64,000 bases of DNA from assembly GCA_963831935.1 (NCBI GenBank), contig CAWHSH010000003.1, forward strand, positions 177,518-241,517, given 5' to 3'. Shown piece by piece: positions 32,296 to 51,060 of this stretch (positions are counted from its first letter, which is position 1; the number at the start of each line of letters is the position of its first letter). The notes below the pieces were generated by a model. It made no database searches. It saw nothing but the letters and a program-made list of their open reading frames with translations, and was not told where the DNA came from. Position numbers and translations under genes: made by a program. The DNA comes from an uncultured Bacteroidales bacterium. Lineage in GTDB: Bacteria > Bacteroidota > Bacteroidia > Bacteroidales > VadinHA17.

Positions 32296-32709
32296 TTACA
32301 GATATTTTCTGTCTTCCTCCGGAACATCAAAGTACTTATCGTACTTGACAGCATCAGGTCCTATCATTTCAACACCCGATGCACTGAGCTTGAATGTACA
32401 TTTTTCCCCAACAATATCCGAAAAGTAAATATCGTACTCCTTGCCATTATCATCAACCATGATTATCCTGACAAGATGATCGTACTTCAGACTGTTCAGA
32501 TGAGCGTGGCAGATGGGACATTTAATTAAGTACTCTTCTCCTTCTTCCATTTTAAAAGTAGAATGCGTAGTAACCGTATAATTCCCAAGTTCGGGATTCA
32601 GCAAGAAGAGCCCTTTTTTATTGCTGTTGTTTTTTAATGCAGCAAGGATTATTGAAGTTTTTACGTTCAGAACTCCTCTGCAGGCTTTACATAAGTATTC
32701 GGTTGCCAT
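32296..32709 (-). CDS. hypothetical CxxC...CxxC (zinc-ribbon-like) protein, last gene of the hydrogenase operon
   Basis: 137-aa ORF with CKAC (aa 7-10) and CPIC (aa 64-67). It starts 18 nt after the hydrogenase protease gene. I recognise no family. Confidence 0.5.
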   Translation of the reverse strand: MATEYLCKACRGVLNVKTSIILAALKNNSNKKGLFLLNPELGNYTVTTHSTFKMEEGEEYLIKCPICHAHLNSLKYDHLVRIIMVDDNGKEYDIYFSDIVGEKCTFKLSASGVEMIGPDAVKYDKYFDVPEEDRKYL

Positions 32710-32727
32710 AAAGTACCTCCTGTTAAT

Positions 32728-33177
32728 TTAGTATGAATTAATAATATTAATTATTTTATCAGCTTCCTCCTTTACAAGATAAGATATATTTTCACCAAAA
32801 TTAATTTTTTCTGGTTGTATGCCCAGCAAATAAACCTGCATTTTAAAAAAATCCTGAAATCTTTTCAGGGAAATATTATGCGTGTTGAAAGTCAGATCAT
32901 GTATCTTACTTAATGACATTAGCTTATGTGTTCCGGGGGTTGATTTCATATCGACACAGTCAATCAGCACAAGAATATCCGGGTTCAGTGAATTAATTTT
33001 ACCAATATAGTTTTCAAGGCTTACTTCAACAGTAAGGGCTGATATTAAAGAGGTATTTTTTATGTTTGAACTTATGTAAACGCCAACGCCATCATCCATC
33101 CTGAGGAGATTTCCGATACCGACAAAAAGTATTTTCTTATCTTTTTGTGAAAGAAGATTATTAAGGCTATCAGGCAC
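32728..33177 (-). CDS. hydrogenase maturation endopeptidase (HycI/HyaD family)
   Basis: 149-aa ORF with the GIGNLLRMDDGVGVY motif characteristic of [NiFe]-hydrogenase C-terminal processing proteases. Confidence 0.75.
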   Translation of the reverse strand: MPDSLNNLLSQKDKKILFVGIGNLLRMDDGVGVYISSNIKNTSLISALTVEVSLENYIGKINSLNPDILVLIDCVDMKSTPGTHKLMSLSKIHDLTFNTHNISLKRFQDFFKMQVYLLGIQPEKINFGENISYLVKEEADKIINIINSY

Positions 33178-33790
33178 CCTTGAATAAATATTTCAACAGA
33201 ATCTGCCGCAGGCAGTTCGGACAAATGATATTGAACATATCTTTTCTTTTTAGTCCGTCTTTGATTTCCACGTCTGTATCCTGACCTTCCGCAAGCCTTA
33301 GCTTCTGGTTCAGCAGGTTAAGATTGAGGATTGAAGAGAAAGCCTGGGGACCGAGTTTCCTGTGCATGAAATGCAAATGTTCTTTAGTTGTTATCACCGC
33401 ATGGCAGCTTTCACAAATAAGAAGTTCTTTTTCCTGATATTCTATGTTTTTACTCCGGTCAAATACTGCCAGATCAAAGATCTTGTCAGACAATTTCACT
33501 CCTTTCTGTGTAATGCAATGTTCCTGACACTGACCACAGAAAATACACAATCCATAGTCCCTTTTTATTGTCCTTACACCTTTATCCGTATCATCCGTGA
33601 ATGTTATTGCATTAGGAGGGCAAACATTGGCACATGTTTCGCACCCCACGCAGTTTTCATCATCAACAACAGGTTTGCCTCTGAAATTCTCAAAAGGAAT
33701 GTGAGGCTGAGCAGGAAATTTTGAAGTATAGGCCGGAGTAACAAGTGAAATCACTGCTTCCTTTAATTCTCTGATCTTTGGGTACTTCAT
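33170..33790 (-). CDS. NuoI/HycF/MbhN-like 2x[4Fe-4S] subunit with a C-terminal Cys-rich extension
   Basis: 206-aa ORF with CVGCETCANVCP and CIFCGQCQEHC motifs, plus later CESC and CPNC pairs. Confidence 0.7.
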   Translation of the reverse strand: MKYPKIRELKEAVISLVTPAYTSKFPAQPHIPFENFRGKPVVDDENCVGCETCANVCPPNAITFTDDTDKGVRTIKRDYGLCIFCGQCQEHCITQKGVKLSDKIFDLAVFDRSKNIEYQEKELLICESCHAVITTKEHLHFMHRKLGPQAFSSILNLNLLNQKLRLAEGQDTDVEIKDGLKRKDMFNIICPNCLRQILLKYLFKGA

Positions 33791-34104
33791 TTTATTGTCT
33801 CCTTATAATCATCTTTCACACTTTTCTTGCCGAGTTTTACCCCGAAATGGTAAGTCCCTCTTATAAGTGCATGAGCAGCTACGGTTGATCCGAAGAATAG
33901 TATTGGTATTGCAATCAGAGCCTTGGCTCCGGCATCGCTGAAACCAAAATGAAAAATAACACCAACAAGGATGCTGCAGCATCCGAGTGTGACACATTTA
34001 GTGGCTGCCTGTAGCCTGTTGTATGTATCCGGAAGCCTTATTATTCCGATACAGCCAAGCAGGTTAAAGAGAATGCCGATAGTTATGAAAACGAGACTTA
34101 TCAT
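33787..34104 (-). CDS. Mrp antiporter subunit G-like (MnhG/MbhC-like)
   Basis: 105-aa membrane protein. LLGCIGIIRLPDTYNRLQAATKCVTLG matches the MnhG signature. Confidence 0.7.
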   Translation of the reverse strand: MISLVFITIGILFNLLGCIGIIRLPDTYNRLQAATKCVTLGCCSILVGVIFHFGFSDAGAKALIAIPILFFGSTVAAHALIRGTYHFGVKLGKKSVKDDYKETIK

Positions 34105-34105
34105 A

Positions 34106-34372
34106 TTATTCGTTAAGTTTTTTGCCGGTCAGGTATTTTGCCAGGGTCAGAGTCCCGATGAAGCTCAGAATGATCCACGCAATACCGATGTCAAGAATGA
34201 ATGATTTTTCAGTCAGGATGGAAATTATCGCACAGATGCCCACAACCAGTATCCCAAAAATATCAATACCAACCATCCGGTCCGGAATTGTGGGTCCGCG
34301 GATTATCCTGTACAGACAGATGCTGCTTAGTCCGATCTGGATATAAAGCAATATGTTCAGATATTCTGTCAT
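34106..34372 (-). CDS. Mrp antiporter subunit F-like (MnhF/MbhB-like)
   Basis: 88-aa membrane protein with an RIIRGPTIPDRMVGIDIFG motif. Confidence 0.7.
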   Translation of the reverse strand: MTEYLNILLYIQIGLSSICLYRIIRGPTIPDRMVGIDIFGILVVGICAIISILTEKSFILDIGIAWIILSFIGTLTLAKYLTGKKLNE

Positions 34373-34866
34373 TCTATGATTCTTTTGATGTACTTTTCAA
34401 ATGCACCGGTAATTATAGGTGTATAAACCTCAGGATCTTCCGACCTCACGTAGATCCAGTGAATATAAAGATAGTCACCGATAATATCGACTGATATTGT
34501 ACCCGGAGTCATTGTAATTGAGTTTGCCAGCAGAGTTTTTGCCAGGTCGGATTTCAGGGTGGTTTTGACTTTCACAATTCCCGGCCTTATCGGCATCGCC
34601 GGATGGAGAACCCTGTAAGCAACATCAAAGTTTGCTTTTATACACTCCCATATAAAAACCCCCAGGTAAATTATAAACCAGAAATAGCGATGAGGCTGAA
34701 TAAGCTTGTATACATTGCCTATAAAAAACCTTGTAAATATTGCGGAGCAGATCAGCGAGGCAACAGCACCGACTATTATGTTCGGGACAGTAAGCCTGAA
34801 CGTCAGCATCAACCAGAAAATAAGCGAAAGTATAAAGACTGTTACGTACCTCATTTCAGATTCCAA
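34369..34866 (-). CDS. Mrp antiporter subunit E-like (MnhE/MbhA-like)
   Basis: 165-aa protein with two N-terminal TM segments. Position and size match MrpE; the start could instead be the ATG at 34854. Confidence 0.6.
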   Translation of the reverse strand: MESEMRYVTVFILSLIFWLMLTFRLTVPNIIVGAVASLICSAIFTRFFIGNVYKLIQPHRYFWFIIYLGVFIWECIKANFDVAYRVLHPAMPIRPGIVKVKTTLKSDLAKTLLANSITMTPGTISVDIIGDYLYIHWIYVRSEDPEVYTPIITGAFEKYIKRIIE

Positions 34867-36394
34867 TTATGAAAGTTGAATATTTAACAGGATCAGTCAG
34901 AATATTTATTGCGGGCATCAGGACAATATCCCTTATACCGGGAAACGCCAGGAGACTCAGTGCGATGCACAGAAGGCTCATTATTACCATACTGAAAATC
35001 ATCGGGAATGGCACTTCTTTTATTTTCTTTTGACTATTATCTTCAGATTTATTGAAAAAGGCATATCGCTGAAATTTCAGAAATGAAGCCAGGGTTATAA
35101 TACTAACAATAACTGCAAGCAGGGCCAGCAGGTAAAATTTGCCCATGATGGCAGCTATGATTATTATCAGCTTGCTGAAGAAACCGTTGAATGGGGGTAT
35201 TCCTGAAATTGACATCGAAGCAATAAAGGAAGTTGAAGAAGTGGCAGGCATATATTTTGCCAGTCCTCCCATCTCATGCAGATCACGTGTCCCTGTGGTG
35301 TACTCGATAGCTCCTGCATTCAGAAATAAAAGGCCTTTAAATGCAGCATGGTTAACAAGATGGAAGAGTCCTCCGGCTATGGCCAGTGAAGCTACTTCCG
35401 ACTTTCCCCCCCGTGAAATAAGAATCATACCTATGCCAACCGACATCACCACATACCCCATCTGGCTGATACTGTGATATGCCAGGAGCCTCTTGATATC
35501 CCACTGACCTATAGCCAGGAAGACTCCGATAACCATCGATAATGTTCCGAGTGTTGTAATGAGTACTGACATGCTTTCGCTCAGTTCGAACATATTGAAG
35601 AACAGCCTGATAATCACGTAAATACCGACAGCTTTTATTAATACTCCGGAAAGCATCGCTGATATCGGGGAAGGTGCGGATGAATGCGCATCAGGCAGCC
35701 AGGCATGGAATGGGATAATCGCAGCTTTCAGTCCGAATCCGCACAGGATCAGTAATTCAACAAGAAGATAAAATGGCCTGTCGTAACCACCTTTAAAAGC
35801 TTCTTTAATATCGGCAATATTAAGTGTCTTGGTTTTCCAGTAAATGAATGCGATCCCGAAAAGTATTAAAAATGAGGCAATCCCGCCAAGTACCTGGTAT
35901 TTAAACGAAGCCTCAAGTTCATTCTTTTCAACGCCAAATGCTACAAGGGCATAGGATGAGATGACTGAGATCTCAAGAAATACAAAAATGTTGAACAGGT
36001 CGCCGCTGAGGACAACTCCGTTCATACCACCCACCATAAGACAGAAGAGGGCATAGAACAGATTTTCGGCTGTGAATCTTTTAATATAGGATATTGAATA
36101 GAAGACTGATAAAAAGCCTACAACATTAATTATGCAAAGAACAATAACAGTGAAACCGTCCATAACCATATATATTCCGATAGGAATTTTATTCACCGGT
36201 TCCCATCCGCCTACCTTATACAAGGAGGCATTTTCTCCGGTTGTTGCAGCCGAATAGACGCTGAATATAGCAAGTATAAGAAGCACCAGCGCGGCAAAGT
36301 ACTTGTTAAAATTCTTAATAAACCGGCCAAGAATCATGATCAGGAAAGCTCCTGCCAGTGGGATAACAACAAACAATGGGATTAGCGGATTCAT
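34856..36394 (-). CDS. MrpD/NuoM/NuoN-like proton-conducting membrane subunit (MbhH-like)
   Basis: 512-aa polytopic protein. WLPDAHSSAPSPISAMLSG and LAYHSISQMGY motifs are typical of the antiporter-like subunit family. Confidence 0.8.
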   Translation of the reverse strand: MNPLIPLFVVIPLAGAFLIMILGRFIKNFNKYFAALVLLILAIFSVYSAATTGENASLYKVGGWEPVNKIPIGIYMVMDGFTVIVLCIINVVGFLSVFYSISYIKRFTAENLFYALFCLMVGGMNGVVLSGDLFNIFVFLEISVISSYALVAFGVEKNELEASFKYQVLGGIASFLILFGIAFIYWKTKTLNIADIKEAFKGGYDRPFYLLVELLILCGFGLKAAIIPFHAWLPDAHSSAPSPISAMLSGVLIKAVGIYVIIRLFFNMFELSESMSVLITTLGTLSMVIGVFLAIGQWDIKRLLAYHSISQMGYVVMSVGIGMILISRGGKSEVASLAIAGGLFHLVNHAAFKGLLFLNAGAIEYTTGTRDLHEMGGLAKYMPATSSTSFIASMSISGIPPFNGFFSKLIIIIAAIMGKFYLLALLAVIVSIITLASFLKFQRYAFFNKSEDNSQKKIKEVPFPMIFSMVIMSLLCIALSLLAFPGIRDIVLMPAINILTDPVKYSTFIIGI

Positions 36395-36397
36395 ATT

Positions 36398-36736
36398 TTA
36401 TCCTCTTAAGTTCTTAATCTCTCTGATATCGAAAGTCCCGTATTTACGGTAAAGCCTTATAATAATCGCCATCATCATTGCCGTTGTGGCAAGCCCGATT
36501 ACAATCGCAGTGAGTACCAATGCCTGGGGCAATGGATCGACATAAATTTTAGCCGGATTGGCCGGATCGACTATAGGAGCCACTCCTTCGTCGATATAGC
36601 CAATAAGGGCAAAAAACAGGAATGTGCTAAATTCCATGATGGACAGGGAGATCGCAATTTTGACAAGATTCCTCCTGGTTATTGCTCCGTAGAGTCCGAC
36701 AAGAAACAGTATAAAACACAACCAATAGACTGTCAT
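36398..36736 (-). CDS. MrpC/NuoK-like subunit (MbhG-like)
   Basis: 112-aa protein with three TM segments. The N-terminus LVGLYGAITRRNLVKIAISLSIME is typical of NuoK/MnhC. Confidence 0.7.
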   Translation of the reverse strand: MTVYWLCFILFLVGLYGAITRRNLVKIAISLSIMEFSTFLFFALIGYIDEGVAPIVDPANPAKIYVDPLPQALVLTAIVIGLATTAMMMAIIIRLYRKYGTFDIREIKNLRG

Positions 36737-37170
36737 TCTGAAATTTCTTCTTTAAATATTACCAGAGCCAGAAAAATAGTCAGGATTGAAGATGCAACCT
36801 CAATTCCGACAAATATATTATACAGCGGCAATATTCCGGCGCTTACAAGCTGACCCACAGTTCCCCTTGGAATCCAGTTCAGAAAAAAAACTCTTGCACC
36901 AACCAGTAATCCGCTTACTGCAAGGAAGATTACGACAAGCATTGCCAGGTTCTCATACATTGTCGATCCGGATTCTTCTTTTGTAAGATGCATGAAATCA
37001 CTTCCAAAAGCAAGGATCAGCAGAATGAATGAGCCAGCCAGAATCACTCCTCCGGCAAAGCCTCCTCCGGGGGTAAGATGACCATGGATTATTACATAAA
37101 TTCCGTAAAGGAAAACCATGCCTGAAATAAGCTGGGTGGTTTTCTTTACTATGATTGTCATTCCTTTCAT
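36733..37170 (-). CDS. MrpB/MnhB-like subunit
   Basis: HLTPGGGFAGGVILA motif of the MnhB domain. The track ORF start (37206, TTG) lies inside a repeat element, so I prefer the ATG at 37170 (MKGMTIIVKK). Confidence 0.65.
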   Translation of the reverse strand: MKGMTIIVKKTTQLISGMVFLYGIYVIIHGHLTPGGGFAGGVILAGSFILLILAFGSDFMHLTKEESGSTMYENLAMLVVIFLAVSGLLVGARVFFLNWIPRGTVGQLVSAGILPLYNIFVGIEVASSILTIFLALVIFKEEISE

Positions 37171-37194
37171 CAATTCATTGTATTTTATATCTTT

Positions 37195-37227
37195 AACCCA
37201 CCCCAAGCCCCTCCCGGGAGGGGATCC
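37195..37227. repeat. GC-rich palindromic repeat (copy A)
   Basis: AACCCACCCCAAGCCCCTCCCGGGAGGGGATCC has a 16-bp perfect palindrome CCCCTCCCGGGAGGGG. The reverse complement of 58837-58869 matches it at 30 of 33 positions. It lies between two mrpB-like genes inside the operon. Confidence 0.85.
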
Positions 37228-37230
37228 AAA

Positions 37231-37761
37231 TCAATATTTCTTTCCTTTAATTCTTAATATGGTCAATACTCCCAAAACCGCGGTTACAAGCACAGTTGCT
37301 TCGCCCATGGTATCGTAACCCCTGAAATCAAATACCACTCCTGTAACAAGATTGGCACTGCCTGTTTTTCCGGCTGCTCCTTCAATATATGGACCGGCCA
37401 TACGCAATGTACTGTCGCCGAAATTATTGAGAGTCTCTGTTGAAATTACGAAGAAATAAAACAAGATCACTATCAACAATACACTCGTAATAATTGAGAT
37501 GTAATTGTACGTATCAGGTTTTGAAAAAGGCTCTTCGCGCGAACTGTCGAGAACAACAGCCACCATGATGATCAGAGTGATGGTTTCCACAACTATCTGT
37601 ACAATTGCCAGATCAGGAGCTTTCAGAAGCAGGAAGCAAATGACCAAACCGTAACCAACAATACCGCAGGCAATTACCGCTGACAACAGGTCGCGCGCAT
37701 GGATGGCATACAATGCTCCTAAGATCATTAATCCTGTTATTATGCATATAGCAATTTCCAT
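37231..37761 (-). CDS. DUF4040 (MbhD-like) + MnhB-related (MbhE-like) membrane subunit
   Basis: The likely start is MEIAICIITGL at 37761. The C-terminal half carries NLVTGVVFDFRGYDTMGEATVL, the MnhB-related signature. Confidence 0.65.
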   Translation of the reverse strand: MEIAICIITGLMILGALYAIHARDLLSAVIACGIVGYGLVICFLLLKAPDLAIVQIVVETITLIIMVAVVLDSSREEPFSKPDTYNYISIITSVLLIVILFYFFVISTETLNNFGDSTLRMAGPYIEGAAGKTGSANLVTGVVFDFRGYDTMGEATVLVTAVLGVLTILRIKGKKY

Positions 37762-37775
37762 ACAGCTGAATTTAT

Positions 37776-39674
37776 TTATATCATGACAAGCAACATAATA
37801 ACCAATCCCGCACATACCCAGATTATATAAGCCGGCAACACACCTGTATGGGCATCGCTGAACAGATGGCTTACCCAGAGAACAAGTTGCTTTGACAGGT
37901 CATAAACGTCAAACCACTTCTTTTCGGCTTTTTTGTACATCCATGAAAAGAATCCGATTTCAGAGATTGTTTTATAGAATTCAGGAGTCGGATAGCCTGT
38001 TTCATCCTGTATTGTTTCTCCGCCGATGAAGCTGTCTTCTGTTCTGAATTTTTTCAACCCCGAGGCGACGTAGATTATTATCCCCAGGATAATGGAAACT
38101 AGTACCAGAAGAGATACAAAAGAGGAATTCCAGAAACCTGTAAACTGGAATTCACCCGATACAGGCATAAGGAATTTTGGTACTATCAGGTTTGTTGCAA
38201 ATACTCCGAAGATGATACAAAAAAGAGCAAGAATTATCATGGGTATCCACATTAAAGCCGGAACCTCCCTGACCTTCTCAAGGGAAGCCTTTCGACGACT
38301 AAGGAAAATCCCTCCTATAAATTTTATAAAGCTGGCTAATGTCAGCGCTGATCCAAGGACCGCTAATCCAAGCCATAATACCCAGAGTTTATTCGCCAGA
38401 CCCGATCCGATTCCAAAATCTATTATACCCTGGTAAATCATCCACTTTGAAGCAAACCCGTTTAAAGGCGGTACACCTGAAATTGACATGGCAAAAATAA
38501 GAGAAGCAAAGAACGTTATGGGCATGGCTTTTGAAAGGCCACCCAGCTCATCGATATTTTCCTCACCTGTCCGGTATTCAACACAACCTGCTGAAAGCAA
38601 CAAACCGCTCTTGTAAAGAGCATGATTAATCATGTGGAAAAGACCTGCAGCTATCCCTATTAGTGAGCCCAGGCCAAATCCAAGTATCATATAACCCACC
38701 TGCGAAACCGCATGAAATCCAAGCAGGCGCTTATAATTATGCTGTACAAGAGCCATCATAACTGCACTGATAATTGTGATTACTCCGATGGTGAGCAGGA
38801 GTAGTCTCATTCCATCATTAAGAATGAATATCCCGGTTGTTAACCTTGCAAGGAAGTATATACCAAGTAATTTGTCGAGTGAGGCCGGAAGCAATGCAGA
38901 TGACGTTGCAGGAGCATTTTTTGCATAATCAGGCACCCATGTATGAAACGGGAAGGCGCCTGCCTTGGTGAAACTGCCGACCAGCAAGGCTAAAAAAGCT
39001 GTTACTGTCAGGGCACTATCGGTAGATAATGATGCATTGCTTATGCTTAACGATCCAGTTAATCGCCATATTATAGCAATTCCTAATAACATAATCGAGT
39101 CTGAAGCTCCGATAAGGATCAGTGTTTTCTTGGCTGTTGCGGAACTTTCTTCATTGTTTCCGGGGATAAGTTTATAAAGTGTTATTCCGAGTATTCCCCA
39201 GAAAAAAATAAAAAGCAACAGATTGTCAGCCAGAACAGCACCATATGAACACCCGATTGTTATCAGAAAATAAGGATAATAATTCATGGCTCTCCCTTTT
39301 TTAATGTAAACCAGGGAGTAGAGAAGGATCAGAAAAGCAAAAATACTGATGAACAAAATTATAAGGCGGCTGAGATTATCAAAATTAAAAACATTGTACC
39401 TTAAAGCGTCTTTAACAAGATCAACTCCAAAAAGTGAGAAACCCGATCTTCCTGTAAGATTTCCGACTGTCGCAAGATTATAGTCAGCACTGAACAGATT
39501 TATTGTCAGGTATCCTGTTACCGTGGTTGCCAAAAGAGCAATTATCCCTTTTATGGTCCTGAATTTTTCTGGTACCAGAAGAAGGAGCAATCCTGCAACT
39601 AAGGGCAGCAGGATCACGATCTGCAGCATTGAGCTTAAAGAGGGTTGAGTTACAATGGTAAATGGCTCATACAT
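37776..39674 (-). CDS. MrpA/NuoL-like proton-conducting membrane subunit
   Basis: 632-aa polytopic protein with WVPDYAKNAPATSSALL and LGFHAVSQVGYM motifs of the antiporter-like family. Confidence 0.8.
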   Translation of the reverse strand: MYEPFTIVTQPSLSSMLQIVILLPLVAGLLLLLVPEKFRTIKGIIALLATTVTGYLTINLFSADYNLATVGNLTGRSGFSLFGVDLVKDALRYNVFNFDNLSRLIILFISIFAFLILLYSLVYIKKGRAMNYYPYFLITIGCSYGAVLADNLLLFIFFWGILGITLYKLIPGNNEESSATAKKTLILIGASDSIMLLGIAIIWRLTGSLSISNASLSTDSALTVTAFLALLVGSFTKAGAFPFHTWVPDYAKNAPATSSALLPASLDKLLGIYFLARLTTGIFILNDGMRLLLLTIGVITIISAVMMALVQHNYKRLLGFHAVSQVGYMILGFGLGSLIGIAAGLFHMINHALYKSGLLLSAGCVEYRTGEENIDELGGLSKAMPITFFASLIFAMSISGVPPLNGFASKWMIYQGIIDFGIGSGLANKLWVLWLGLAVLGSALTLASFIKFIGGIFLSRRKASLEKVREVPALMWIPMIILALFCIIFGVFATNLIVPKFLMPVSGEFQFTGFWNSSFVSLLVLVSIILGIIIYVASGLKKFRTEDSFIGGETIQDETGYPTPEFYKTISEIGFFSWMYKKAEKKWFDVYDLSKQLVLWVSHLFSDAHTGVLPAYIIWVCAGLVIMLLVMI

Positions 39675-39683
39675 AGCATATTG

Positions 39684-40877
39684 TTAAAGTTTCTTCTTTA
39701 ATCCGGCTGTCCGGCGTACTGAACGATCTATCATCTCTTTTGCATTCATGATCTTTTCACCTGTCGAAAAATCGTAAGCGACTGCCAGACGTTCGGTGCA
39801 GCAATAGCAGGGATCGACCCCTGCAAGGGTTATTGTAGCGTCAGCAATTGTCTGACCAATGCATGATTTTTTAAAGGTGGCAATATTCACATAGCTGGGA
39901 GCTCTGATCTTATGTCGTGCCGGCGAATTTGACCCGTCTGAAACAACAAAATGAAATACCTCACCTCTCGGGGCCTCAGCGCGGCCATGACCTATTCCTT
40001 CAGGAATTTCATTGACCTTCACATTCATATCTCCCTCTTTTTCCTTTTCAAGTCCCTTAAGGCACTGTTCTATTATTGATATTGACTCATACATTTCCAG
40101 AAGTCTGACCTGAGCTTTGGCAAACACATCACCGGTTTCGGCTGTTATCACTTTCCAGTCGACCAGGGGATAGGCGGCGTAGGGATCATCTTTTCTTACA
40201 TCAATTGGTACACCGGAAGCCCTGGCGGTGGGGCCCACTGCACCGTAGTCAATTACATCCTGCTTTGTAAGAACACCTACACCCTTTGTTCTTGCATGGA
40301 TCACCGGATCATCCATGATAGCACCAGTAAGTAGATCAGCTTTTTTGCTGACTTCGCTCAGGATCTTGCGGATCGTGGCGATTTTACTGTTTTCTATATC
40401 CCTGCGAACACCTCCTACCTTGAACATCGCGTAGCTGTTCCTGTTGCCTGTGATCATCTCGAACAAGTCGAGAACAGGTTCGCGGTATTTCCACGCCCAC
40501 ATAAAAACTGTATTATAACCCAGGAAATGTCCGGCAAGACCTACCCACAGAAGGTGGCTGTGAATCCGTTCCAGCTCTCCGATAATCGATCTGATATATT
40601 TCACCCTGTCAGTCACTTCAATTCCGGCTATTTCTTCAACTGCGTTTGCAAATGCAAAAGGATGAGATGTGGAGCAGATGCCGCAAATACGTTCAACAAG
40701 GAAAAAAACCTGATCATAAGTTTTTGATTCACTGAGTTTCTCGATACTCCGGTGATTGTAGCCCGTCACCCATTGAATATCCTTTACTATTTCCCCGTCA
40801 CAGTACAGCTTGAACAATTCAGGCTCTTCCTGAAGCGGATGATATGGACCAATGGGTATAAGAGTCTTTCTGCTCAT
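39684..40877 (-). CDS. group 4 [NiFe]-hydrogenase large subunit (MbhL/HycE/EchE-like)
   Basis: 397-aa NuoD-fold protein that keeps both Ni-Fe ligand pairs: N-terminal RICGICSTSH and C-terminal DPCYCCTER. A 33-aa extension follows, consistent with endopeptidase processing. Confidence 0.85.
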   Translation of the reverse strand: MSRKTLIPIGPYHPLQEEPELFKLYCDGEIVKDIQWVTGYNHRSIEKLSESKTYDQVFFLVERICGICSTSHPFAFANAVEEIAGIEVTDRVKYIRSIIGELERIHSHLLWVGLAGHFLGYNTVFMWAWKYREPVLDLFEMITGNRNSYAMFKVGGVRRDIENSKIATIRKILSEVSKKADLLTGAIMDDPVIHARTKGVGVLTKQDVIDYGAVGPTARASGVPIDVRKDDPYAAYPLVDWKVITAETGDVFAKAQVRLLEMYESISIIEQCLKGLEKEKEGDMNVKVNEIPEGIGHGRAEAPRGEVFHFVVSDGSNSPARHKIRAPSYVNIATFKKSCIGQTIADATITLAGVDPCYCCTERLAVAYDFSTGEKIMNAKEMIDRSVRRTAGLKKKL

Positions 40878-41332
40878 TCCTTTTCCTTTGTAGTTGATTT
40901 AAAATCTTTACGATATGGGTATACACCCTCTGCCCAGTTCCCTTCAGAGATAAGCTTGTCCTGGTTTGGATGGTTCAGAAAATTGATGCCGAAAAGCTCA
41001 TGCATTTCCCTTTCGATCCAGTTTGTAGCGTTTAACATGTTCGACAGCGATTCAACCTGCGGATTCTCCCTGTCGAGAATTACATGCAGATTGAGAATCA
41101 ATCCCGATTGATCTTTACTGAAATGATAGTGAATCTCAAATCCCCTTTTCGTGTGAATTGCTGATGCTATAATGAACCTGAATCCGGCCTCTTTATATAA
41201 AAATCCGGCAATATCAAGGATTGCCTCAGGCTTTATTGTAATTATAATACGCCTTGGATTCTTTTCTGTTATTTCAAGAATTTCAGATTTGAAATCTTTT
41301 TTAAGCTTGTCTATGTCGGATTCTTTAACCAT
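40874..41332 (-). CDS. NuoC/MbhK-like subunit
   Basis: 152-aa ORF. The WIEREMHELFGINFLNHPN motif is typical of NuoC/HycE-N. It overlaps the large-subunit start by 4 nt. Confidence 0.75.
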   Translation of the reverse strand: MVKESDIDKLKKDFKSEILEITEKNPRRIIITIKPEAILDIAGFLYKEAGFRFIIASAIHTKRGFEIHYHFSKDQSGLILNLHVILDRENPQVESLSNMLNATNWIEREMHELFGINFLNHPNQDKLISEGNWAEGVYPYRKDFKSTTKEKE

Positions 41333-41347
41333 GGTTTTATCTTTCTT

Positions 41348-41526
41348 CCTCTATGTGCCTCTGTGGCTCCTCTGTGTGACTCTGTGTAAGTTCTTTCTTT
41401 GTTTCTACTTTTTATCAGTTTTATTACTCTCTCCCGGTACCTCTCTGCTTTTCACGTACTAAATCCAAGCCCCTATCTGCTTTCCACTTACTCACCCGCG
41501 GCCCCTCTCTACTTCGTAAAGAGGGG
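41348..41526. repeat. composite of both dispersed repeat families inside the hydrogenase operon
   Basis: Reiterated CCTCTGTG units end in CTCTGTGTAAGT (41348-41393, core 41380-41391). CCAAGCCCCT (41465-41474) is shared with 37203-37212. A hairpin CCCCTCT-N11-AGAGGGG lies at 41502-41526. Confidence 0.75.
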
Positions 41527-41553
41527 AGGTTTAACTCTTTACTTTTGAATATA

Positions 41554-41967
41554 TTAAGTCTTCTGTACCAGTTTTACAATTCCCGCGATAATCGCCTCCG
41601 GTTTCGGAGGGCACCCAGGTATATAAGCATCCACCGGAATAACCTTATCAACAGGTCCGGCAAAAGTTATGCTTTCAGCAAATAATCCGCCTGTACATCC
41701 ACAGGCTCCTATAGCCACAACAAGAATAGGCTTTGGAGCCTGGTTATAGATCTCCAGAAGTCTCCCTTTATCGTGTCTGTTTATTATTCCGTTTACAAGC
41801 AATACATCGGCATGTCTTATACTGCCCACAAGCAAAATTCCGAAGCGTTCCAGATCATGTCTTGGGGTAAGACAATCAAGGATCTCTATATCGCAATTAT
41901 TGCATGAGGCTCCTCCAAAGTGAAAGACCCAGAGCGACTTTTTAAAGCAATAACTTTTAAATCCCAC
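41554..41967 (-). CDS. group 4 [NiFe]-hydrogenase small subunit (NuoB/MbhJ/HycG-like)
   Basis: 137-aa ORF with four Cys in the NuoB pattern (CNNC, GACGC, GCPP) for the proximal [4Fe-4S] cluster. Confidence 0.8.
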   Translation of the reverse strand: MGFKSYCFKKSLWVFHFGGASCNNCDIEILDCLTPRHDLERFGILLVGSIRHADVLLVNGIINRHDKGRLLEIYNQAPKPILVVAIGACGCTGGLFAESITFAGPVDKVIPVDAYIPGCPPKPEAIIAGIVKLVQKT

Positions 41968-41979
41968 GATAGTATCAGT

Positions 41980-42912
41980 TTAGTAACCAAAAACAATCAA
42001 AACAAGAGCAATAACTGCCAGGATATTCATCCAGATCATGAAGAAATTGACTGCCTGCCTGATCCTGATCCTGGGATTTGTATTTTTTATCAGAGTCAGC
42101 AGAAGTACAATTCCCAGAACTTTCAATATACTCCATAACATATTGATTCCGTCCAGGCGGAATCCTCCCATCAACAATGCAACAAGCAACGAAGGCAGGA
42201 TGAAAAGCATGATATATTTTGTCAGTTTGATCATGGCATATGATGATCCTGAATATTCAATAAAAATCCCTTCAGTGATTTCTGCCTCTGCTTCAGGAAT
42301 ATCAAAAGGAACAAGGGCCAGCTTTGCCTGGACACAAAAAATGCCAACTATGAAGAGCAGAATCCCGGAGACACTTCCAATAAAAGGAGCTCCGGCCTGT
42401 TGTGTCTGTATAATACTGTTAAGGTCAAATTGCTGGCCACATTTCATTATTATTCCTGCTATGAAAAGGAGAAAGGTGAGTTCATAACTTAGGATAAGTT
42501 TCATTTCCCTTGAACCGCCGACAGCGGCAAGAGGATTACCTGATGCCAGCGAACCGATAATGTATGAAAATGAAGGTATTGTAAGAAGGTAGAAGATCAC
42601 AAGAAGATCGCCCCTGAAACCCGAAGTTATATTAAACAAGGGAAGTAAAATAAAAACGCCTGCCATTACGGCACCAAATACAGAAAAGACCGGTGCAAGA
42701 AGAAAAATTAATGGCGAGCCCCTTTTCGGGAGAATAGTTTCCTTGACGAGTAACAATTTGAAAAAATCGTAGAATGGCTGCAATACAGGAGGCCCTTTTC
42801 TAAACTGGACCCTGGCTGAAATTTTCCTGTCAAACCATGAAAGGAGCGCTCCTGCTGTTGCCACGAAAAGCAGTCCTGGAAAGACAAGAAAATAAAACAG
42901 ATTTACTGCCAT
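41980..42912 (-). CDS. NuoH/HycD/MbhM-like membrane subunit
   Basis: 310-aa polytopic protein. RKISARVQFRKGP near the N-terminus and the AEAEITEG motif are typical of the NuoH family. Confidence 0.8.
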   Translation of the reverse strand: MAVNLFYFLVFPGLLFVATAGALLSWFDRKISARVQFRKGPPVLQPFYDFFKLLLVKETILPKRGSPLIFLLAPVFSVFGAVMAGVFILLPLFNITSGFRGDLLVIFYLLTIPSFSYIIGSLASGNPLAAVGGSREMKLILSYELTFLLFIAGIIMKCGQQFDLNSIIQTQQAGAPFIGSVSGILLFIVGIFCVQAKLALVPFDIPEAEAEITEGIFIEYSGSSYAMIKLTKYIMLFILPSLLVALLMGGFRLDGINMLWSILKVLGIVLLLTLIKNTNPRIRIRQAVNFFMIWMNILAVIALVLIVFGY

Positions 42913-42924
42913 TGTTATTCTTTT

Positions 42925-43422
42925 TTATTGTTTTTCAACGGTATATAAATACTCTCGTATAAGGACCTTATCATTAAGTCTGTAAATATTTTCTGATGGA
43001 GATTCATCGGATTCAACAACCGAAACAACTCCCGGAGGACACGCTTTAGTAAAAAGTTCAAGTTCCTGGCTGTCGTTCAGATCATGAAATAAATCCTTGT
43101 TCCTGTGATGTTTGAAAAAGTCGGTCATCATAGTACCGAAGGGACAGATCGTAACACATGATTTGCAGGAAATACAGAGATTTAAGTGCCGGGTGACAAT
43201 ACCTTCACTGTCTTTTTCAAGGGCATCGGCCGGACAAACATTGATGCACGGTGCGTCCTCACATCTTCTGCAGGTGAACCTGAATATAGCCAGTTCCCTT
43301 ATGGTTTTAAGGCCGACACTATCAGGGGAATGGGAAAAATAACCTTCAGGAAGAGCAATGGCCGGGTTTTCAGCCATGGCTTTGCGAAGCTTTATCATAT
43401 CCAGCAGAATTCTCTTAGTCAT
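42925..43422 (-). CDS. 4Fe-4S dicluster ferredoxin-like subunit (HycB-like)
   Basis: 165-aa ORF with CRRCEDAPCINVCP and CISCKSCVTICP motifs. Confidence 0.65.
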   Translation of the reverse strand: MTKRILLDMIKLRKAMAENPAIALPEGYFSHSPDSVGLKTIRELAIFRFTCRRCEDAPCINVCPADALEKDSEGIVTRHLNLCISCKSCVTICPFGTMMTDFFKHHRNKDLFHDLNDSQELELFTKACPPGVVSVVESDESPSENIYRLNDKVLIREYLYTVEKQ

Positions 43423-43449
43423 CTTACTTATTTATTACACCGGATTTTT

Positions 43450-44280
43450 CTATTTCCAAATATCCGGAGTATTTTTTAATTCACTATAGGTAAATACCGG
43501 TCCGTCTTTGCAAACAAAAAACTCACCCATCATGCAGTGGCCGCATTTACCAAGTCCGCACGACATGTTCTTTTCCATAGAAAGGTAGATCTGGTCATCC
43601 TTGTACCCCATTTCAAGCAGCCTGATAGTTCCGAATTTCATCATGATCGGTGGTCCGCAAACAACTGCTACCGAATTTTTGCGGTTGACATTTATATTAT
43701 TGAGCAGGGTCGTAACAACTCCTACAGGACCATCCCACCCGGTTTCTGCTCTATCAACTGTCCGGTAAGCCTCAAATTTCTCAATACTGTTCAACCTGCT
43801 GAACAGAGGTTTATAAATGCAGTCGGATGCAGTTTTTGAACCATAGCACAGGATTACCTTGACCAATTTTTCTTTAATGTGCTCCAGAGCATAAAGCAGC
43901 GATCTGATTGGTGCAAGTCCGCAACCTCCACCAAGGATCAGTACCTCTTTGCCAAAATAACTTTCAACCGGATAACCCCGGCCGTACGGACCCCGGATTC
44001 CCATATGACAACCCGGCTTTAAAGCATGCATGTATTCCGTAACATATCCTGTCTTCATCACTGTCACTTCAAGTTTATCCTTTACCAGAGGTGAAGATGA
44101 CGGAGTAAAAGGAGCCTCCCCGATACCGTCGACTGACAATTCAATAAACTGTCCGGTACCAAATGAAAATTCTTCTTCCGGGATCAGAACAAATGTTTTG
44201 ATAATCGGAGATTCTTCAATAACTTCTGTAAGCTTTGCCTTTAATGGTTTATATATGTTTTTTGTATTCAGCATTATCAT
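43450..44280 (-). CDS. FAD/NAD(P)-binding + [2Fe-2S] oxidoreductase (AsrB / sulfhydrogenase gamma HydG / PyrK-like)
   Basis: 276-aa ORF with the ferredoxin-NADP reductase-like layout (GPYG, ILGGGCGLAPI). The C-terminal CGLGKCGHCMMGEFFVC is a [2Fe-2S] motif. Confidence 0.75.
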   Translation of the reverse strand: MIMLNTKNIYKPLKAKLTEVIEESPIIKTFVLIPEEEFSFGTGQFIELSVDGIGEAPFTPSSSPLVKDKLEVTVMKTGYVTEYMHALKPGCHMGIRGPYGRGYPVESYFGKEVLILGGGCGLAPIRSLLYALEHIKEKLVKVILCYGSKTASDCIYKPLFSRLNSIEKFEAYRTVDRAETGWDGPVGVVTTLLNNINVNRKNSVAVVCGPPIMMKFGTIRLLEMGYKDDQIYLSMEKNMSCGLGKCGHCMMGEFFVCKDGPVFTYSELKNTPDIWK

Positions 44281-45273
44281 TTACTTTGCCAATTCAAGAA
44301 ACAATTCGTTTTTATTTATTTTTCCGATGCATGCTTCAATGCATCTTCCGCAACCGGTACAGGCTATGGAATTGAATTTTTGAGGCTTCCATACATATTT
44401 GCACATATACCTGTTCCGGAACCGCTGACTCAATTCGGAAAGTGGATCTTCTCCCCCTGCAACTCTCTCAAATCCGGGATACTGGCACGCATCCAGCTGT
44501 TTTACTTTTTCAAAATCCGGCTTATCAATCAATAGAAAACATGAACATGTGGGGCATATAGTCGCACACGCACCGCAGGAAACACAAGTGGCAGAATATT
44601 TTTCCCATATTTCCTTTACGGCTCCGCTGACCAGCTTTCCGGTGGATTTATAATCAGGGAGGCCCTTGTTTGATGTCAGAAGCATTGATTCAGCAGAATC
44701 GTGGGCTTTTTCTATTTCAGAAATGACAGATTGATCTTTTACATCATGCAGCCGTGTAATCTGATGGATAAAATCCTCTCCTTTAGGAGTAATAAGCCGT
44801 AATACGATCAGGTCACCCATTTGTATTGCAGAAAGATCTGCATCCGTTGTAGCATAGGGATTTATGCCATATGATGTACAATGACAATGGTCTTGCTTCT
44901 CAAAACAATCAGTCGAAATAAGTATTGTCTTTTCCCTCCGTTCCCTGTAAAAGGGGTCATTGAAATCCTTATCAAGGTAAAGTTCATCAAGGAGCTTCAA
45001 TCCCTGTATATCACAATTTGGCGAACCTAGAATAATCCTGTATTTGTCAGGCAACAGGGCAGAAGTCACATTTTCCCTCACCGGCAGGAAAAAGGTCTTA
45101 AGTGAAGTGGCGGGCTTGGCTTTGTTGTACGATATTTTGCTGATATTGGCCGGATTTATATTTTCATAGTCCATGCCATATTCATTATCCACCGTTGCGA
45201 AAATGGCATAGGATAATAACAATTGCTCAATTGTCTTATCCCATTCATCCTTTTTGATGCTTAAATATTGCAT
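44281..45273 (-). CDS. 4Fe-4S dicluster protein (AsrA / sulfhydrogenase beta HydB-like), first gene of the operon
   Basis: 330-aa ORF with CVSCGACATICPTCSC and CTGCGRCIEAC motifs plus a CHC pair. The layout parallels anaerobic sulfite reductase subunit A and hydrogenase beta subunits. Its stop abuts the next start. Confidence 0.7.
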   Translation of the reverse strand: MQYLSIKKDEWDKTIEQLLLSYAIFATVDNEYGMDYENINPANISKISYNKAKPATSLKTFFLPVRENVTSALLPDKYRIILGSPNCDIQGLKLLDELYLDKDFNDPFYRERREKTILISTDCFEKQDHCHCTSYGINPYATTDADLSAIQMGDLIVLRLITPKGEDFIHQITRLHDVKDQSVISEIEKAHDSAESMLLTSNKGLPDYKSTGKLVSGAVKEIWEKYSATCVSCGACATICPTCSCFLLIDKPDFEKVKQLDACQYPGFERVAGGEDPLSELSQRFRNRYMCKYVWKPQKFNSIACTGCGRCIEACIGKINKNELFLELAK

Positions 45274-45274
45274 T

Positions 45275-45294
45275 TATGTGAGAAGATTCACATA
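45275..45294. promoter_or_regulatory. candidate Rex (or Crp/Fnr-type) operator: TATGTGA-GAAGAT-TCACATA
   Basis: Perfect 7-bp inverted arms with a 6-nt spacer. It matches 11 of 14 defined positions of the Rex consensus TTGTGAAnnnnTTCACAA. It lies 2-21 nt upstream of the first hydrogenase-operon start codon, in the divergent region shared with rex. Confidence 0.55.
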
Positions 45295-45461
45295 TAAAAA
45301 TATATTCAATGGAAATAAAAGACAATAAAAAAAATCATATTTTTGTACTGCAAACTGAAATTGTTTTAATATTATACTTTATATCAACAATATACAAAAT
45401 TGTTTTTCGTAACGGATCAACAGGTCAGATAACAATTCAGAATAAATTTAAGATATTTGAT

Positions 45462-46145
45462 GTGAAACAAATCACAAAATACGTTATCAAAAACAGCTTA
45501 AAAAGAATCTTCCTTTACCGTGCCTGTCTGGTCAGGCTGAAGAGGATGGGTGTTGAAAAAGTCTTTTCATACACTCTCGCAAATGAAACAGGTGTTACAT
45601 CTGACCAGGTCCGGAAAGACTTTTCAGAGTTCAGTATTAAAGGAAATAAGCGTGGCGGCTATGAGGTTAATGAGCTTCTCGAAAAGATGGAAAATATTTT
45701 TCACCGGAACAAAGACCATAATATTGTCCTGATAGGCATGGGGAATCTTGGTCTGGCATTATCAAAATACAGCAGGTTTGTACAGCGTGATATGAATATT
45801 GTTGCAACCTTCGATATTGACCCGTTTAAACAGAAGATCAGGTCAGATATCCCTGTATATTCGATGAGCAGGCTGAAAGAGATTATTGACCGTTTCAGGG
45901 TAAACGTGGCAATACTTGCGGTACCTGAGATTTCAGCGCAGGAAGTCAGTGATGAACTTGTAAGAGTGGGAATTAAAGGGATAGTAAATTTCGCACCGGT
46001 GCTTCTGAAAGTTCCCCCGGACGTGGTAATCAACAATGTGAATCTTGGGGATGAGCTCGAGAGCGTTATTTACTATGTGCATAAGATGCTGAAAGTTGAC
46101 GGGCAAAAAAACATTGCATTATTATTCAAGGATATGAAATACTGA
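45462..46145 (+). CDS. rex: redox-sensing transcriptional repressor Rex
   Basis: Winged-helix N-terminus (IKNSLKRIFLYRACLVRLKRMG) and a Rossmann NADH domain (VLIGMGNLGLAL). I place the start at the in-frame GTG at 45462. The track ORF start 45309 adds 51 AT-rich low-complexity codons with no Rex-like sequence. Confidence 0.8.
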   Translation: MKQITKYVIKNSLKRIFLYRACLVRLKRMGVEKVFSYTLANETGVTSDQVRKDFSEFSIKGNKRGGYEVNELLEKMENIFHRNKDHNIVLIGMGNLGLALSKYSRFVQRDMNIVATFDIDPFKQKIRSDIPVYSMSRLKEIIDRFRVNVAILAVPEISAQEVSDELVRVGIKGIVNFAPVLLKVPPDVVINNVNLGDELESVIYYVHKMLKVDGQKNIALLFKDMKY

Positions 46146-48387: not shown

Positions 48388-48602
48388 GTGTTCCTGCCCG
48401 GATAGTAAAGATAGACGGACAAATTGCTGATGTGTCAATCGGAGGTGCCACTTTTAAAGCGGGCCTGCAGATGGTGGAAAATGCCAGGGTAGGGGACTAT
48501 ATACTTCTTCATGCCGGATTTGCTATTCAGAAAATAAGTGAAGAGGATGCACTGGTGACAATAAAACTGCTTAAGGAACTGGACGATATTAAGGATAAAT
48601 GA
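48378..48602 (+). CDS. hypC: hydrogenase assembly chaperone HypC
   Basis: 74-aa ORF starting [10 protein letters not shown] (the conserved N-terminal Cys2 motif of HypC/HupF). It overlaps the hypF end. Confidence 0.85.
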
Positions 48603-50703: not shown

Positions 50704-50713
50704 TTAATTAACA

Positions 50714-51059
50714 ATGCATGAACTAAGGATAGCTGAGGATCTTTCAGGAATTGTGCTCGAAGCGGCAAGGAATGAAAAGCTTGCAAAAGGTACGTAAAGT
50801 AAATATCACGCTTTGGTCAGCTGGTACAGATAGTTCCTGAAATATTTGAGTACTGCTTTCACTGAGTCGGTAAGAGGGTACAATTGCAGAAGGCAGTGAA
50901 TTGAATATTGAGATCGTAAAGGTTAAGATGAAATGCAAGGATTGCGGGAAAGAATTCCGGATCAGAGGAAATATCTTTGCCTGCAATTATTGCGGATCAA
51001 CAGATATGGAAATTATTAAAGGGAAAGAGATTTTTATTAAAAGTATAGAAGGAGAATGA
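50714..51059 (+). pseudogene. hypA: hydrogenase nickel-insertion protein HypA, 2-3 frame shifts
   Basis: Starts with MHELRIAEDL (the HypA MHE motif). The C-terminal zinc site is CKDCGKEF...CNYCGS. Stops interrupt the middle at about 50790-50880. Confidence 0.75.
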
Positions 51060-51060
51060 T

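Follow-up and report, generated by a model that had tools for sequence, protein, structure and literature searches.

Which redox partner exchanges electrons with a [NiFe]-hydrogenase whose operon begins with a flavo-iron-sulphur protein pair and continues into an antiporter-like membrane arm? The question is raised by a 64,000-nucleotide (nt) stretch of DNA from an uncultured Bacteroidales bacterium (GenBank assembly GCA_963831935.1, contig CAWHSH010000003.1, positions 177,518 to 241,517), called the window here, in which 18 open reading frames (ORFs) on the minus strand run from position 45273 down to 32296. The locus is almost certainly a Hun-type hydrogenase operon. Our best reading of its product is an NAD(P)H:H+ oxidoreductase that would be coupled to an ion gradient and derepressed through the redox-sensing repressor Rex, and we give this reading a probability of about 0.5. 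The evidence comes from conserved Rex boxes, from the motifs preserved in HunB and from the gene order in other genomes.

Identity and distribution of the hydrogenase operon

The genes were identified by Pfam and NCBIfam searches of the window ORFs (Table 1). This bore out the content of 18 genes and their close packing, both described in a first interpretation of the letters alone (the sequence-only reading). Genes 1 to 16 follow, gene for gene, the published order of the 16-subunit "Hun" Ni-Fe hydrogenase-Na+/H+ antiporter supercomplex (Glass et al. 2021, bioRxiv 10.1101/536078), with HunABC, the Mrp-like module and the terminal HunP in the same places. There, HunAB were described as AsrAB-like, HunC as a ferredoxin, HunD, HunE and HunF as NuoH-, NuoB- and NuoC-like, HunH to HunO as Mrp-like and HunP as NuoI-like. 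HunG was assigned to HydDB group 4g, far from the other 4g sequences, with the unusual L1/L2 combination CGIC-CYCC. The window HunG carries the same combination in the Ni ligands RICGICSTSH (residue 63) and DPCYCCTER (residue 355). Both Ni-ligand cysteine pairs and a tail of the type cleaved by the HycI protease had been recognised before, only the length of the tail after DPCYCCTER is 34 amino acids (aa) and not 33. The letters hunH to hunO were given here by position in the operon.

The complete operon consists of hunA to hunP, hycI and a lineage-specific gene for a CxxC protein. It belongs to a known, uncharacterised family, and the architecture is not new. The sequence-only reading, which knew of no biochemical description of it, had overstated the novelty, as the same 16 genes are those of Hun and a relative has been reported from Saganbacteria (PMC6349859). 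New here are the Rex operators in two phyla, a Mrp-less variant that keeps HunABC and the case that the motifs make for a pyridine-nucleotide partner. The window lineage differs from the published Hun by a rex-hyp unit that diverges from the operon and comes with two conserved Rex boxes, by the CxxC gene after hycI and by a HunC with two clusters only; many sister species, though not the window, additionally have a gene for a cyclic nucleotide monophosphate (cNMP)-binding domain between hunB and hunC. The published donor prediction is ferredoxin, whereas the sequence evidence presented here leans to NAD(P)H.

Glass et al. 2021 (bioRxiv 10.1101/536078) listed Atribacteria, Firmicutes, Omnitrophica, Elusimicrobia, Bacteroidetes and cultured Kosmotoga as hosts, and their figure additionally shows an ADurb wastewater sample. 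In our literature search, the name Hun was met in this original paper only, and the enzyme was undescribed in the literature on digester Bacteroidales, methanogenic bioprocesses, the Ignavibacterium album genome, Staphylothermus, Mesotoga/Kosmotoga and the Cell 2024 hydrogenases.

The distribution was examined in species-representative genomes (one per species), where more than 540 candidate stretches encode a relative of the large subunit. The best 80 of these, from 80 genomes, were compared by tblastn with all 18 proteins and Rex. All 80 are Bacteroidales-type metagenome-assembled genomes, labelled Bacteroidales, Bacteroidia, Bacteroidota, Rikenellaceae, Rikenella or Bacteroidaceae. Every one with a long enough contig had all the genes in order and rex diverging from them, although the identity of HunA drops to 59% and that of Rex to 30% among these loci. 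Since the arrangement is kept across related species, it is not a chance juxtaposition. HunG has thousands of metagenome relatives at 85% identity or more, and the named ones are all uncultured Bacteroidales, Bacteroidia or Bacteroidota.

Outside this group, the nearest 50%-identity cluster representative is from Kosmotoga sp. (P0122) and is 61% identical to HunG. All 16 genes are colinear in its locus, which also has hycI and hypFCD, and the Ignavibacteria and Bacillota loci also have the gene order of the window. In a neighbour-joining tree of the representatives, the window groups with P0121, P0122 and P0124, and the canonical Mbh-type sequences stand apart. Further relatives occur in Thermotogae, Ignavibacteria, Bacillota, KSB1 and Marinimicrobia. 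AsrAB-like genes upstream of mrp-mbh clusters, which the sequence-only reading had proposed to look for in other genomes, were thus found in Bacteroidales, Kosmotoga, Ignavibacteria and Bacillota loci.

Rex boxes and the donor module

The rex gene diverges from hunA, and the two share a control region of about 190 bp. The rex start is probably a GTG at 45462, as judged from the N-terminal alignment. The whole 64 kb window was scanned for TGTGAA-N4-TTCACA, and the two boxes of this region were the only sites with one mismatch. The sequence-only reading had pointed to the divergent rex and to one Rex box; both held, and the second box was added to them. Conservation was then tested by footprinting in 50 Bacteroidales loci containing both rex and hunA. 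Box 2 at the rex start was found with at most one mismatch and at the same position in all 50 loci, and was perfect in 12. Box 1, about 20 nt upstream of hunA, was found with at most one mismatch and at a constant distance in 43. The Kosmotoga hun loci have a near-perfect Rex box about 30 nt before hunA, with no second site of this kind in 20 kb. The calculated chance of such a box in 400 nt is about 6e-5 (14 specified bases, at most one mismatch). The boxes fit the Rex operator pattern TTGTGAA-N4-TTCACAA, and control of the hun operon by Rex through these predicted operators is highly probable. Rex lets go of the DNA as the NADH/NAD+ ratio climbs, so Hun would be made when NADH accumulates. 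Two genes for HTH_5/ArsR-type regulators were also seen upstream in the Kosmotoga loci L087 and L088.

Downstream of rex follow the maturation genes of the hyp group, in the same order in five related loci examined (L001, L005, L007, L008 and L020). In the window, hypF and hypC are intact, and the remnants of hypD, hypE, hypA and hypB lie in several different frames. The hypD-hypE stretch contains at least six uncompensated 1-nt insertions when compared with L001; the coding parts of the hun operon contain none. The orthologues of hypD, hypE, hypA and hypB are intact in four related genomes. The frameshifts are either a local assembly error or a recent decay of the maturation genes.

The donor module was compared with proteins of known structure. 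The only match of HunA in the PDB was the beta subunit of the Pyrococcus furiosus sulfhydrogenase I (9nez_B, 2e-32), and the top match of HunB was the gamma subunit of the same enzyme (9nez_C, 2e-51), which confirmed the sulfhydrogenase/AsrAB affinity proposed earlier for the leading genes. In the alignment with 9nez_C, HunB shows the glycine-rich nucleotide-binding motif GGGCGLAPIRS (AAGLGTAPLRS in 9nez_C), CGPP and CGLGKCGHC..CKDGPVF, and the cysteine motif C-x4-C-x2-C...C of the [2Fe-2S] cluster is preserved. The NAD_binding_1 domain is also present in HunB of the Kosmotoga, Ignavibacteria and Bacillota loci. With the sulfhydrogenase equivalog models, HunA and HunB reached 138 and 174 bits (cut-offs 690 and 650), with AsrA and AsrB 125.7 and 203.9 bits (cut-offs 323 and 288.6). 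The ShyB, AsrA and HydB models all match HunA, each under its equivalog cut-off. As the scores with the Asr and sulfhydrogenase models are nearly equal and all below the cut-offs, HunA and HunB form a subfamily of their own in the HydBG/AsrAB superfamily.

HunC falls into the HycB/CooF/HydN family, both by NCBIfam and by its structure matches. In Kosmotoga, Ignavibacteria, Bacillota and the Mrp-less variant it has an additional CDFC...C...C motif for a third cluster. The best NCBIfam family of HunP is HycF of formate hydrogenlyase (9e-31). Its extra cysteines at 126, 129, 190 and 193 (CxxC...CPxC) are conserved in all Hun-type loci examined, including the Mrp-less and the FrhB-type ones, whereas the canonical MbhN is without them. 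They may form a Zn site or an additional Fe-S site, perhaps the docking point of HunC. By analogy, we infer that the wiring from HunABC to HunP mirrors formate hydrogenlyase, with a diaphorase in the place of the formate or CO dehydrogenase.

The start of hunB abuts the stop of hunA, and hunC follows 27 nt further on. The linkage of hunA and hunB to the hydrogenase is kept in at least four phyla (Bacteroidales, Thermotogae, Ignavibacteria and Bacillota loci). A relative with 46% identity in the large subunit, P0124, keeps the order HunA-HunB-HunC-NuoH-NuoB-NuoC-large subunit-NuoI without any Mrp gene. Such "mini-Hun" loci were found in an organism with PorV/Por_Secre_tail genes, and that of L084 lies a few kb downstream of rnf genes. 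Since HunABC are kept without the Mrp genes, the diaphorase travels with the hydrogenase core and not with the antiporter module.

Two further observations concern the genes around this module. A neighbouring Mrp-linked group 4 clade (L089:71-12474) has no HunABC and ends with a 543-aa FrhB/FdhB-like subunit, which from its sequence suggests another donor module, e.g. for F420 or a related cofactor. As this subunit occurs instead of HunABC, donor modules have apparently been swapped in this part of group 4. In about 35 of 60 related loci, a 151-aa protein is encoded between hunB and hunC (e.g. L001:7050-7560). It is a stand-alone cNMP_binding domain (Pfam, 1.3e-10) and is missing at the corresponding place of the window (43423-43449).

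The operon was then compared with the known enzymes that it resembles. The P. furiosus membrane-bound hydrogenase (MBH; group 4d, 6CFW) evolves H2, is a relative of complex I and has in common with Hun the NuoB/C/D/H/I-like core and a Mrp-derived membrane module. Its MbhL is the closest solved structure to HunG (6cfw_L, 3e-83), followed by HycE (2e-76). The canonical MBH-type locus (L092), however, starts with its Mrp genes (order mbhA-N), encodes one antiporter-like subunit and is without diaphorase or HycB-like subunit. The hun operon encodes two antiporter-like subunits as well as HunABC, and its HunP bears an additional Cys pair at the C-terminus. Membership in group 4d was rejected because the gene order, the number of antiporter-like subunits and the added soluble donor module differ.

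Escherichia coli formate hydrogenlyase and the Mrp-linked formate and CO enzymes (groups 4a/4b/4c; 7Z0S) share with Hun the modular path from a donor to a HycB/CooF-like protein, a HycF-like subunit, the small subunit and the Ni-Fe site. Both the HycB/CooF-like connector and the HycF-like subunit are present in the window as HunC and HunP. The donor of these groups is a molybdopterin formate dehydrogenase or a CO dehydrogenase, that of Hun a HydBG/AsrAB-type flavo-iron-sulphur pair. No catalytic subunit of a formate or CO dehydrogenase was found in the operon or the flanks examined, and membership in groups 4a/4b/4c was rejected.

In sulfhydrogenase I (group 3b, 9NEZ), the beta and gamma subunits are homologous to HunA and HunB, with the FAD (flavin adenine dinucleotide), NAD(P) and [2Fe-2S] motifs kept. 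This enzyme is a heterotetramer of the cytosol, in which a group 3 large subunit is joined by a small subunit of its own, whereas the HunAB pair is tied to a membrane enzyme of group 4. Group 3b was rejected since the window has a Complex1_49kDa/group 4 large subunit and a cluster with 10 membrane subunits. AsrABC was rejected because no AsrC or siroheme gene was found in the operon or the flanks examined and the AsrA and AsrB scores are below the cut-offs. Closer in content is the "enigmatic" group 4 cluster of Saganbacteria RX5A, where asrA, asrB and a cooF-like gene adjoin Mrp-like and group 4 genes and were proposed by the authors to form an "oxidoreductase module" (Matheus Carnevali et al. 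2019, PMC6349859). Unlike the window, this cluster has an additional molybdopterin oxidoreductase, and no link to Rex was reported for it (PMC6349859).

Electron partner and direction of the reaction

The midpoint potentials (E0') are -320 mV for NAD+/NADH and -414 mV for H+/H2, and the formation of H2 from NADH costs about +18 kJ/mol under standard conditions. It can proceed only when H2 is very low or energy is supplied. Because the reaction is uphill, the membrane arm would let H+ or Na+ in to drive it. The antiporter-like subunits and the Mrp module are the obvious coupling device, which favours a gradient-assisted, reversible evolution of H2 from NAD(P)H.

In the proposed mechanism, a rise of NADH/NAD+ would take Rex off its operators and the hun genes would be transcribed together with the maturation genes. 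NAD(P)H would be oxidised at the FAD of HunB, and the electrons would pass from the [2Fe-2S] cluster of HunB to the [4Fe-4S] clusters of HunA, then to HunC, HunP, HunE and the Ni-Fe site of HunG, where protons would be reduced to H2. The formation of H2 would be driven by H+ or Na+ flowing inward through the membrane arm, made up of the NuoH-like subunit, both antiporter-like subunits and the small Mrp proteins. At the very low H2 maintained by methanogenic partners, the reaction would be near equilibrium and reversible. The coupling of NAD(P)H/H2 interconversion to an ion gradient had been suggested by the sequence-only reading; the Rex boxes and the motifs of HunB now lend it better support, and it is still put forward as a hypothesis. 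As judged from the sequence motifs, we rather favour a pyridine nucleotide as the physiological redox partner. That the membrane arm works by consuming the gradient is a tentative proposal, to which we give slightly less than even odds.

Several points weigh against this reading. Rex also governs ferredoxin-dependent hydrogenases in Clostridia and Caldicellulosiruptor, so control by Rex does not establish NADH as the substrate. In the Ignavibacteria, Bacillota and Mrp-less loci, the search upstream of hunA gave no Rex box. The HunC of the Bacteroidales is without the third-cluster ligands CDFC...C...C, and the cluster chain may no longer be continuous. HunP keeps the MbhN-like clusters, the docking place of ferredoxin in MBH, so an input from ferredoxin is also possible. 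If the decay of hypD, hypE, hypA and hypB is real, the strain may be unable to mature the enzyme unless it has another hyp set. In the literature, no biochemical or transcript data were found for any Hun complex, and ferredoxin is the donor in the sole published functional prediction (bioRxiv 10.1101/536078). The sequence-only reading had considered that the large subunit might fall in a characterised subgroup, one where the two leading genes are routine and ferredoxin-only biochemistry has been published. The named subgroup with both leading genes does exist; the biochemistry was not found, and for ferredoxin there is the prediction only.

This prediction would have HunABC take up electrons from reduced ferredoxin, while an exergonic H2 evolution pumps H+ or Na+ outward as in MBH and HunB carries its NAD(P)/FAD domain as a vestige or for structure only. 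The family of AsrB, HydG, PyrK and NfnA, however, consists of pyridine-nucleotide flavoproteins; the FAD, NAD(P) and [2Fe-2S] motifs of HunB are kept across phyla, where a vestigial domain should decay; MBH works without such a module; and Rex operators were found in two phyla. The proposal of Glass et al. (bioRxiv 10.1101/536078) is built on an analogy with AsrAB and gives no reason why HunB retains its NAD(P)/FAD domain. With HydDB calling group 4g putatively ferredoxin-coupled, the ferredoxin-dependent MbhL as the closest solved large subunit, and both Rnf and a ferredoxin-generating catabolism present in these Bacteroidales (digester Bacteroidales literature), ferredoxin as the only donor is nevertheless an explanation to be weighed, which we regard as unlikely. 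Ferredoxin could instead enter at HunP or HunC and HunAB be a second port, either for a confurcation balanced by the ion gradient or for a ferredoxin:NAD(P)+ oxidoreductase that pumps ions, H2 serving as its overflow valve. The two MbhN/HycF clusters of HunP with its extra conserved Cys pair, the rnf genes adjoining the Mrp-less variant and the long-standing proposal of Mbx as a ferredoxin:NADP+ oxidoreductase (PMC6349859; Staphylothermus literature) are consistent with two partners. A bifurcating flavoprotein of the NuoF/HydB or GltD type was not found in the operon by Pfam, nothing here distinguishes this model from those with a single donor, and we consider it quite unlikely.

The complex might also work in the direction of uptake, oxidising H2, reducing NAD(P)+ and pumping ions outward, with about 18 kJ/mol conserved at high H2. 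The reaction is exergonic at high H2, complex-I-type machines are reversible and the family is widespread in subsurface taxa (bioRxiv 10.1101/536078). The derepression at high NADH would then induce an enzyme that produces NADH, which makes little regulatory sense, and the carrier Bacteroidales live in low-H2 methanogenic systems. Uptake therefore appears distinctly improbable as the main function. There is an extremely small chance that hunA and hunB are a unit of their own, e.g. part of a sulfite or polysulfide reductase with its catalytic subunit encoded elsewhere. HunA and HunB match the AsrA and AsrB models about as well as the sulfhydrogenase models, but again below the cut-offs and with no AsrC or siroheme gene in the operon or its examined flanks. 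The pair is linked to the hydrogenase in Bacteroidales, Thermotogae, Ignavibacteria, Bacillota and the Mrp-less variant, the stop of hunA touches the start of hunB, terminator signals are not above background, and the Rex-controlled region lies upstream of hunA and not of hunC.

Layout of the locus and significance

Table 1. Coordinates of the hun operon, the divergent rex-hyp unit and related elements (window positions unless a locus is named)
Feature	Position	Strand	Evidence or remark
hunA, AsrA/HydB-like Fe-S protein	44281..45273	-	330 aa, 16 Cys; Fer4_22 2.7e-23
hunB, AsrB/HydG-like FAD + NAD(P) + [2Fe-2S] protein	43450..44280	-	276 aa; FAD_binding_6 + NAD_binding_1 (4e-13) + DHODB_Fe-S_bind
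hunC, HycB/CooF-type ferredoxin, two [4Fe-4S] motifs	42925..43422	-	Pfam/NCBIfam; HycB3/4 of hydrogen-dependent CO2 reductase (HDCR); HycB of formate hydrogenlyase (FHL), 7z0s_B
hunD, NuoH/MbhM-like membrane subunit	41980..42912	-	NADHdh 2.9e-64
hunE, NuoB-like small subunit	41554..41967	-	Oxidored_q6 9e-30; Cys 22, 25, 89/91, 119
Spacer, 221 nt, hairpin CCCCTCT..AGAGGGG and four CACAGAG-like repeats	41333..41553	-	not conserved
hunF, NuoC-like	40874..41332	-	Complex1_30kDa 5e-25
hunG, group 4 [NiFe] large subunit	39684..40877	-	Complex1_49kDa + NiFeSe_Hases
hunH, first antiporter-like subunit, MrpA/NuoL-like, 632 aa	37776..39674	-	Proton_antipo_M; Pfam/NCBIfam
hunI, MbhD + MbhE-like fusion	37231..37815	-	Pfam
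hunJ, MnhB-domain subunit; hairpin CCCCTCCCGGGAGGGG just before	36733..37206	-	Pfam
hunK, MrpC/NuoK-like	36398..36736	-	Pfam
hunL, second antiporter-like subunit, MrpD-like, 512 aa	34856..36394	-	Proton_antipo_M; Pfam/NCBIfam
hunM, MrpE-like	34369..34866	-	Pfam
hunN, MrpF-like	34106..34372	-	Pfam
hunO, MrpG-like	33787..34104	-	Pfam
hunP, HycF/NuoI-like 2x[4Fe-4S] with extra C-terminal CxxC...CPxC	33170..33790	-	FHL iron-sulphur subunit 9e-31
hycI-type maturation endopeptidase	32728..33177	-	TIGR00072, 74.2 bits (cut-off 47.45)
137-aa protein, two CxxC pairs	32296..32709	-	without Pfam or NCBIfam match
Rex box 1, TGTGAGAAGATTCACA	45277..45292		predicted; 4-19 nt upstream of hunA start codon; one mismatch
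Rex box 2, TGTGAAACAAATCACA	45461..45476		predicted; overlaps probable rex GTG start; one mismatch
rex, redox-sensing NADH/NAD+ repressor	45462..46145	+	Put_DNA-bind_N + CoA_binding; NCBIfam Rex 211.7 bits (cut-off 138)
hypF	46166-48211	+	directly after rex
hypC	48378-48602	+	downstream of hypF
hypD, hypE, hypA, hypB remnants	48599..51723	+	split over several frames
Kosmotoga Rex boxes TTGTGAATTTTATCACAA	L087:5447-5464; L088:5888-5905		predicted; rex not adjacent
Mini-Hun (Mrp-less) locus	L084:5808-12011, also L085, L086		organism with PorV/Por_Secre_tail genes

The intergenic gaps from gene 1 to gene 18 are 0, 27, 12, 12, 221, -4, 9, -40, 24, -4, 3, -11, -4, 1, -4, -8 and 18 nt. The genes overlap or are at most 27 nt apart everywhere except at the 221-nt spacer and at gene 10, where the gap depends on the start: it is 24 nt, or about 60 nt when the first ATG of gene 10 is taken. 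These are the two wider, repeat-bearing gaps that had been noticed from the sequence. The hairpin of the 221-nt spacer is unique within the window, its fold is unexceptional (z = -1.7) and an Rfam search of the spacer gave no match. Among related Bacteroidales, the gap between hunE and hunF (NuoB and NuoC) ranges from -3 to 275 nt, which argues for an insertion-prone site and not for a conserved promoter or a boundary of two units. With its variable length, ordinary fold and missing Rfam match, the spacer was rejected as a conserved functional part. The second G+C-rich hairpin within the operon, that in front of hunJ, is located at 37207-37230, and there too the spacer lengths differ between species and Rfam gave no match. 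In a consensus scan of the operon, 16 terminator-like sites were counted (11.8 +/- 4.1 expected) and 46 promoter-like sites (34.2 +/- 6.8 expected), the latter without a Bacteroidetes promoter model. No terminator signal above background was found, and the scan is uninformative on a single transcript.

The last gene of the operon encodes the CxxC protein, with invariant CxxC pairs at residues 7/10 and 64/67. It has about 524 homologues, all from this Bacteroidales lineage and all hypothetical or unnamed, and the gene is missing from Kosmotoga and the other non-Bacteroidales Hun loci. An AlphaFold2 model from a 30-sequence alignment was all-beta with a mean pLDDT (predicted local distance difference test) of 44.7, too low for use. 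Downstream of the operon lie unrelated genes for a transketolase, a HAD hydrolase and a resistance-nodulation-division (RND) efflux system; with rex and the hyp genes on its other side, the locus is a self-contained hydrogenase island. Elsewhere in the window, a single ORF of 1463 aa (23289-27680) combines a full-length AcrB-type RND transporter (ACR_tran, residues 5-1034) with an outer-membrane factor (OEP, residues 1277-1460). It is either an unusual fusion or a gene pair joined by the assembly.

How NADH is converted to H2 in fermenters and syntrophs is a central question of anaerobic bioenergetics. The accepted routes are the electron-confurcating [FeFe]-hydrogenases and the reverse electron transport via Rnf. 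Hun might be an ion-gradient-driven NAD(P)H:proton oxidoreductase, in effect complex I running backwards onto a hydrogenase head, and the main route from NADH to H2 in its carriers; we hold this for possible, with the odds somewhat against it. Kosmotoga has been reported without a bifurcating hydrogenase (Mesotoga/Kosmotoga literature). Since cultured Kosmotoga have both hun and the Rex box, the NAD(P)H hypothesis is directly testable. HunA and HunB are easily misannotated as subunits of the anaerobic sulfite reductase, which can inflate the sulfite-reduction potential inferred in metagenome surveys. If the hypothesis is true, Hun would represent a new bioenergetic mode, a third way from NADH to H2 beside confurcation and the combination of reverse Rnf with a ferredoxin hydrogenase, and it would be the main such route of abundant uncultured Bacteroidales in digesters, sediments and soils and of Kosmotoga.

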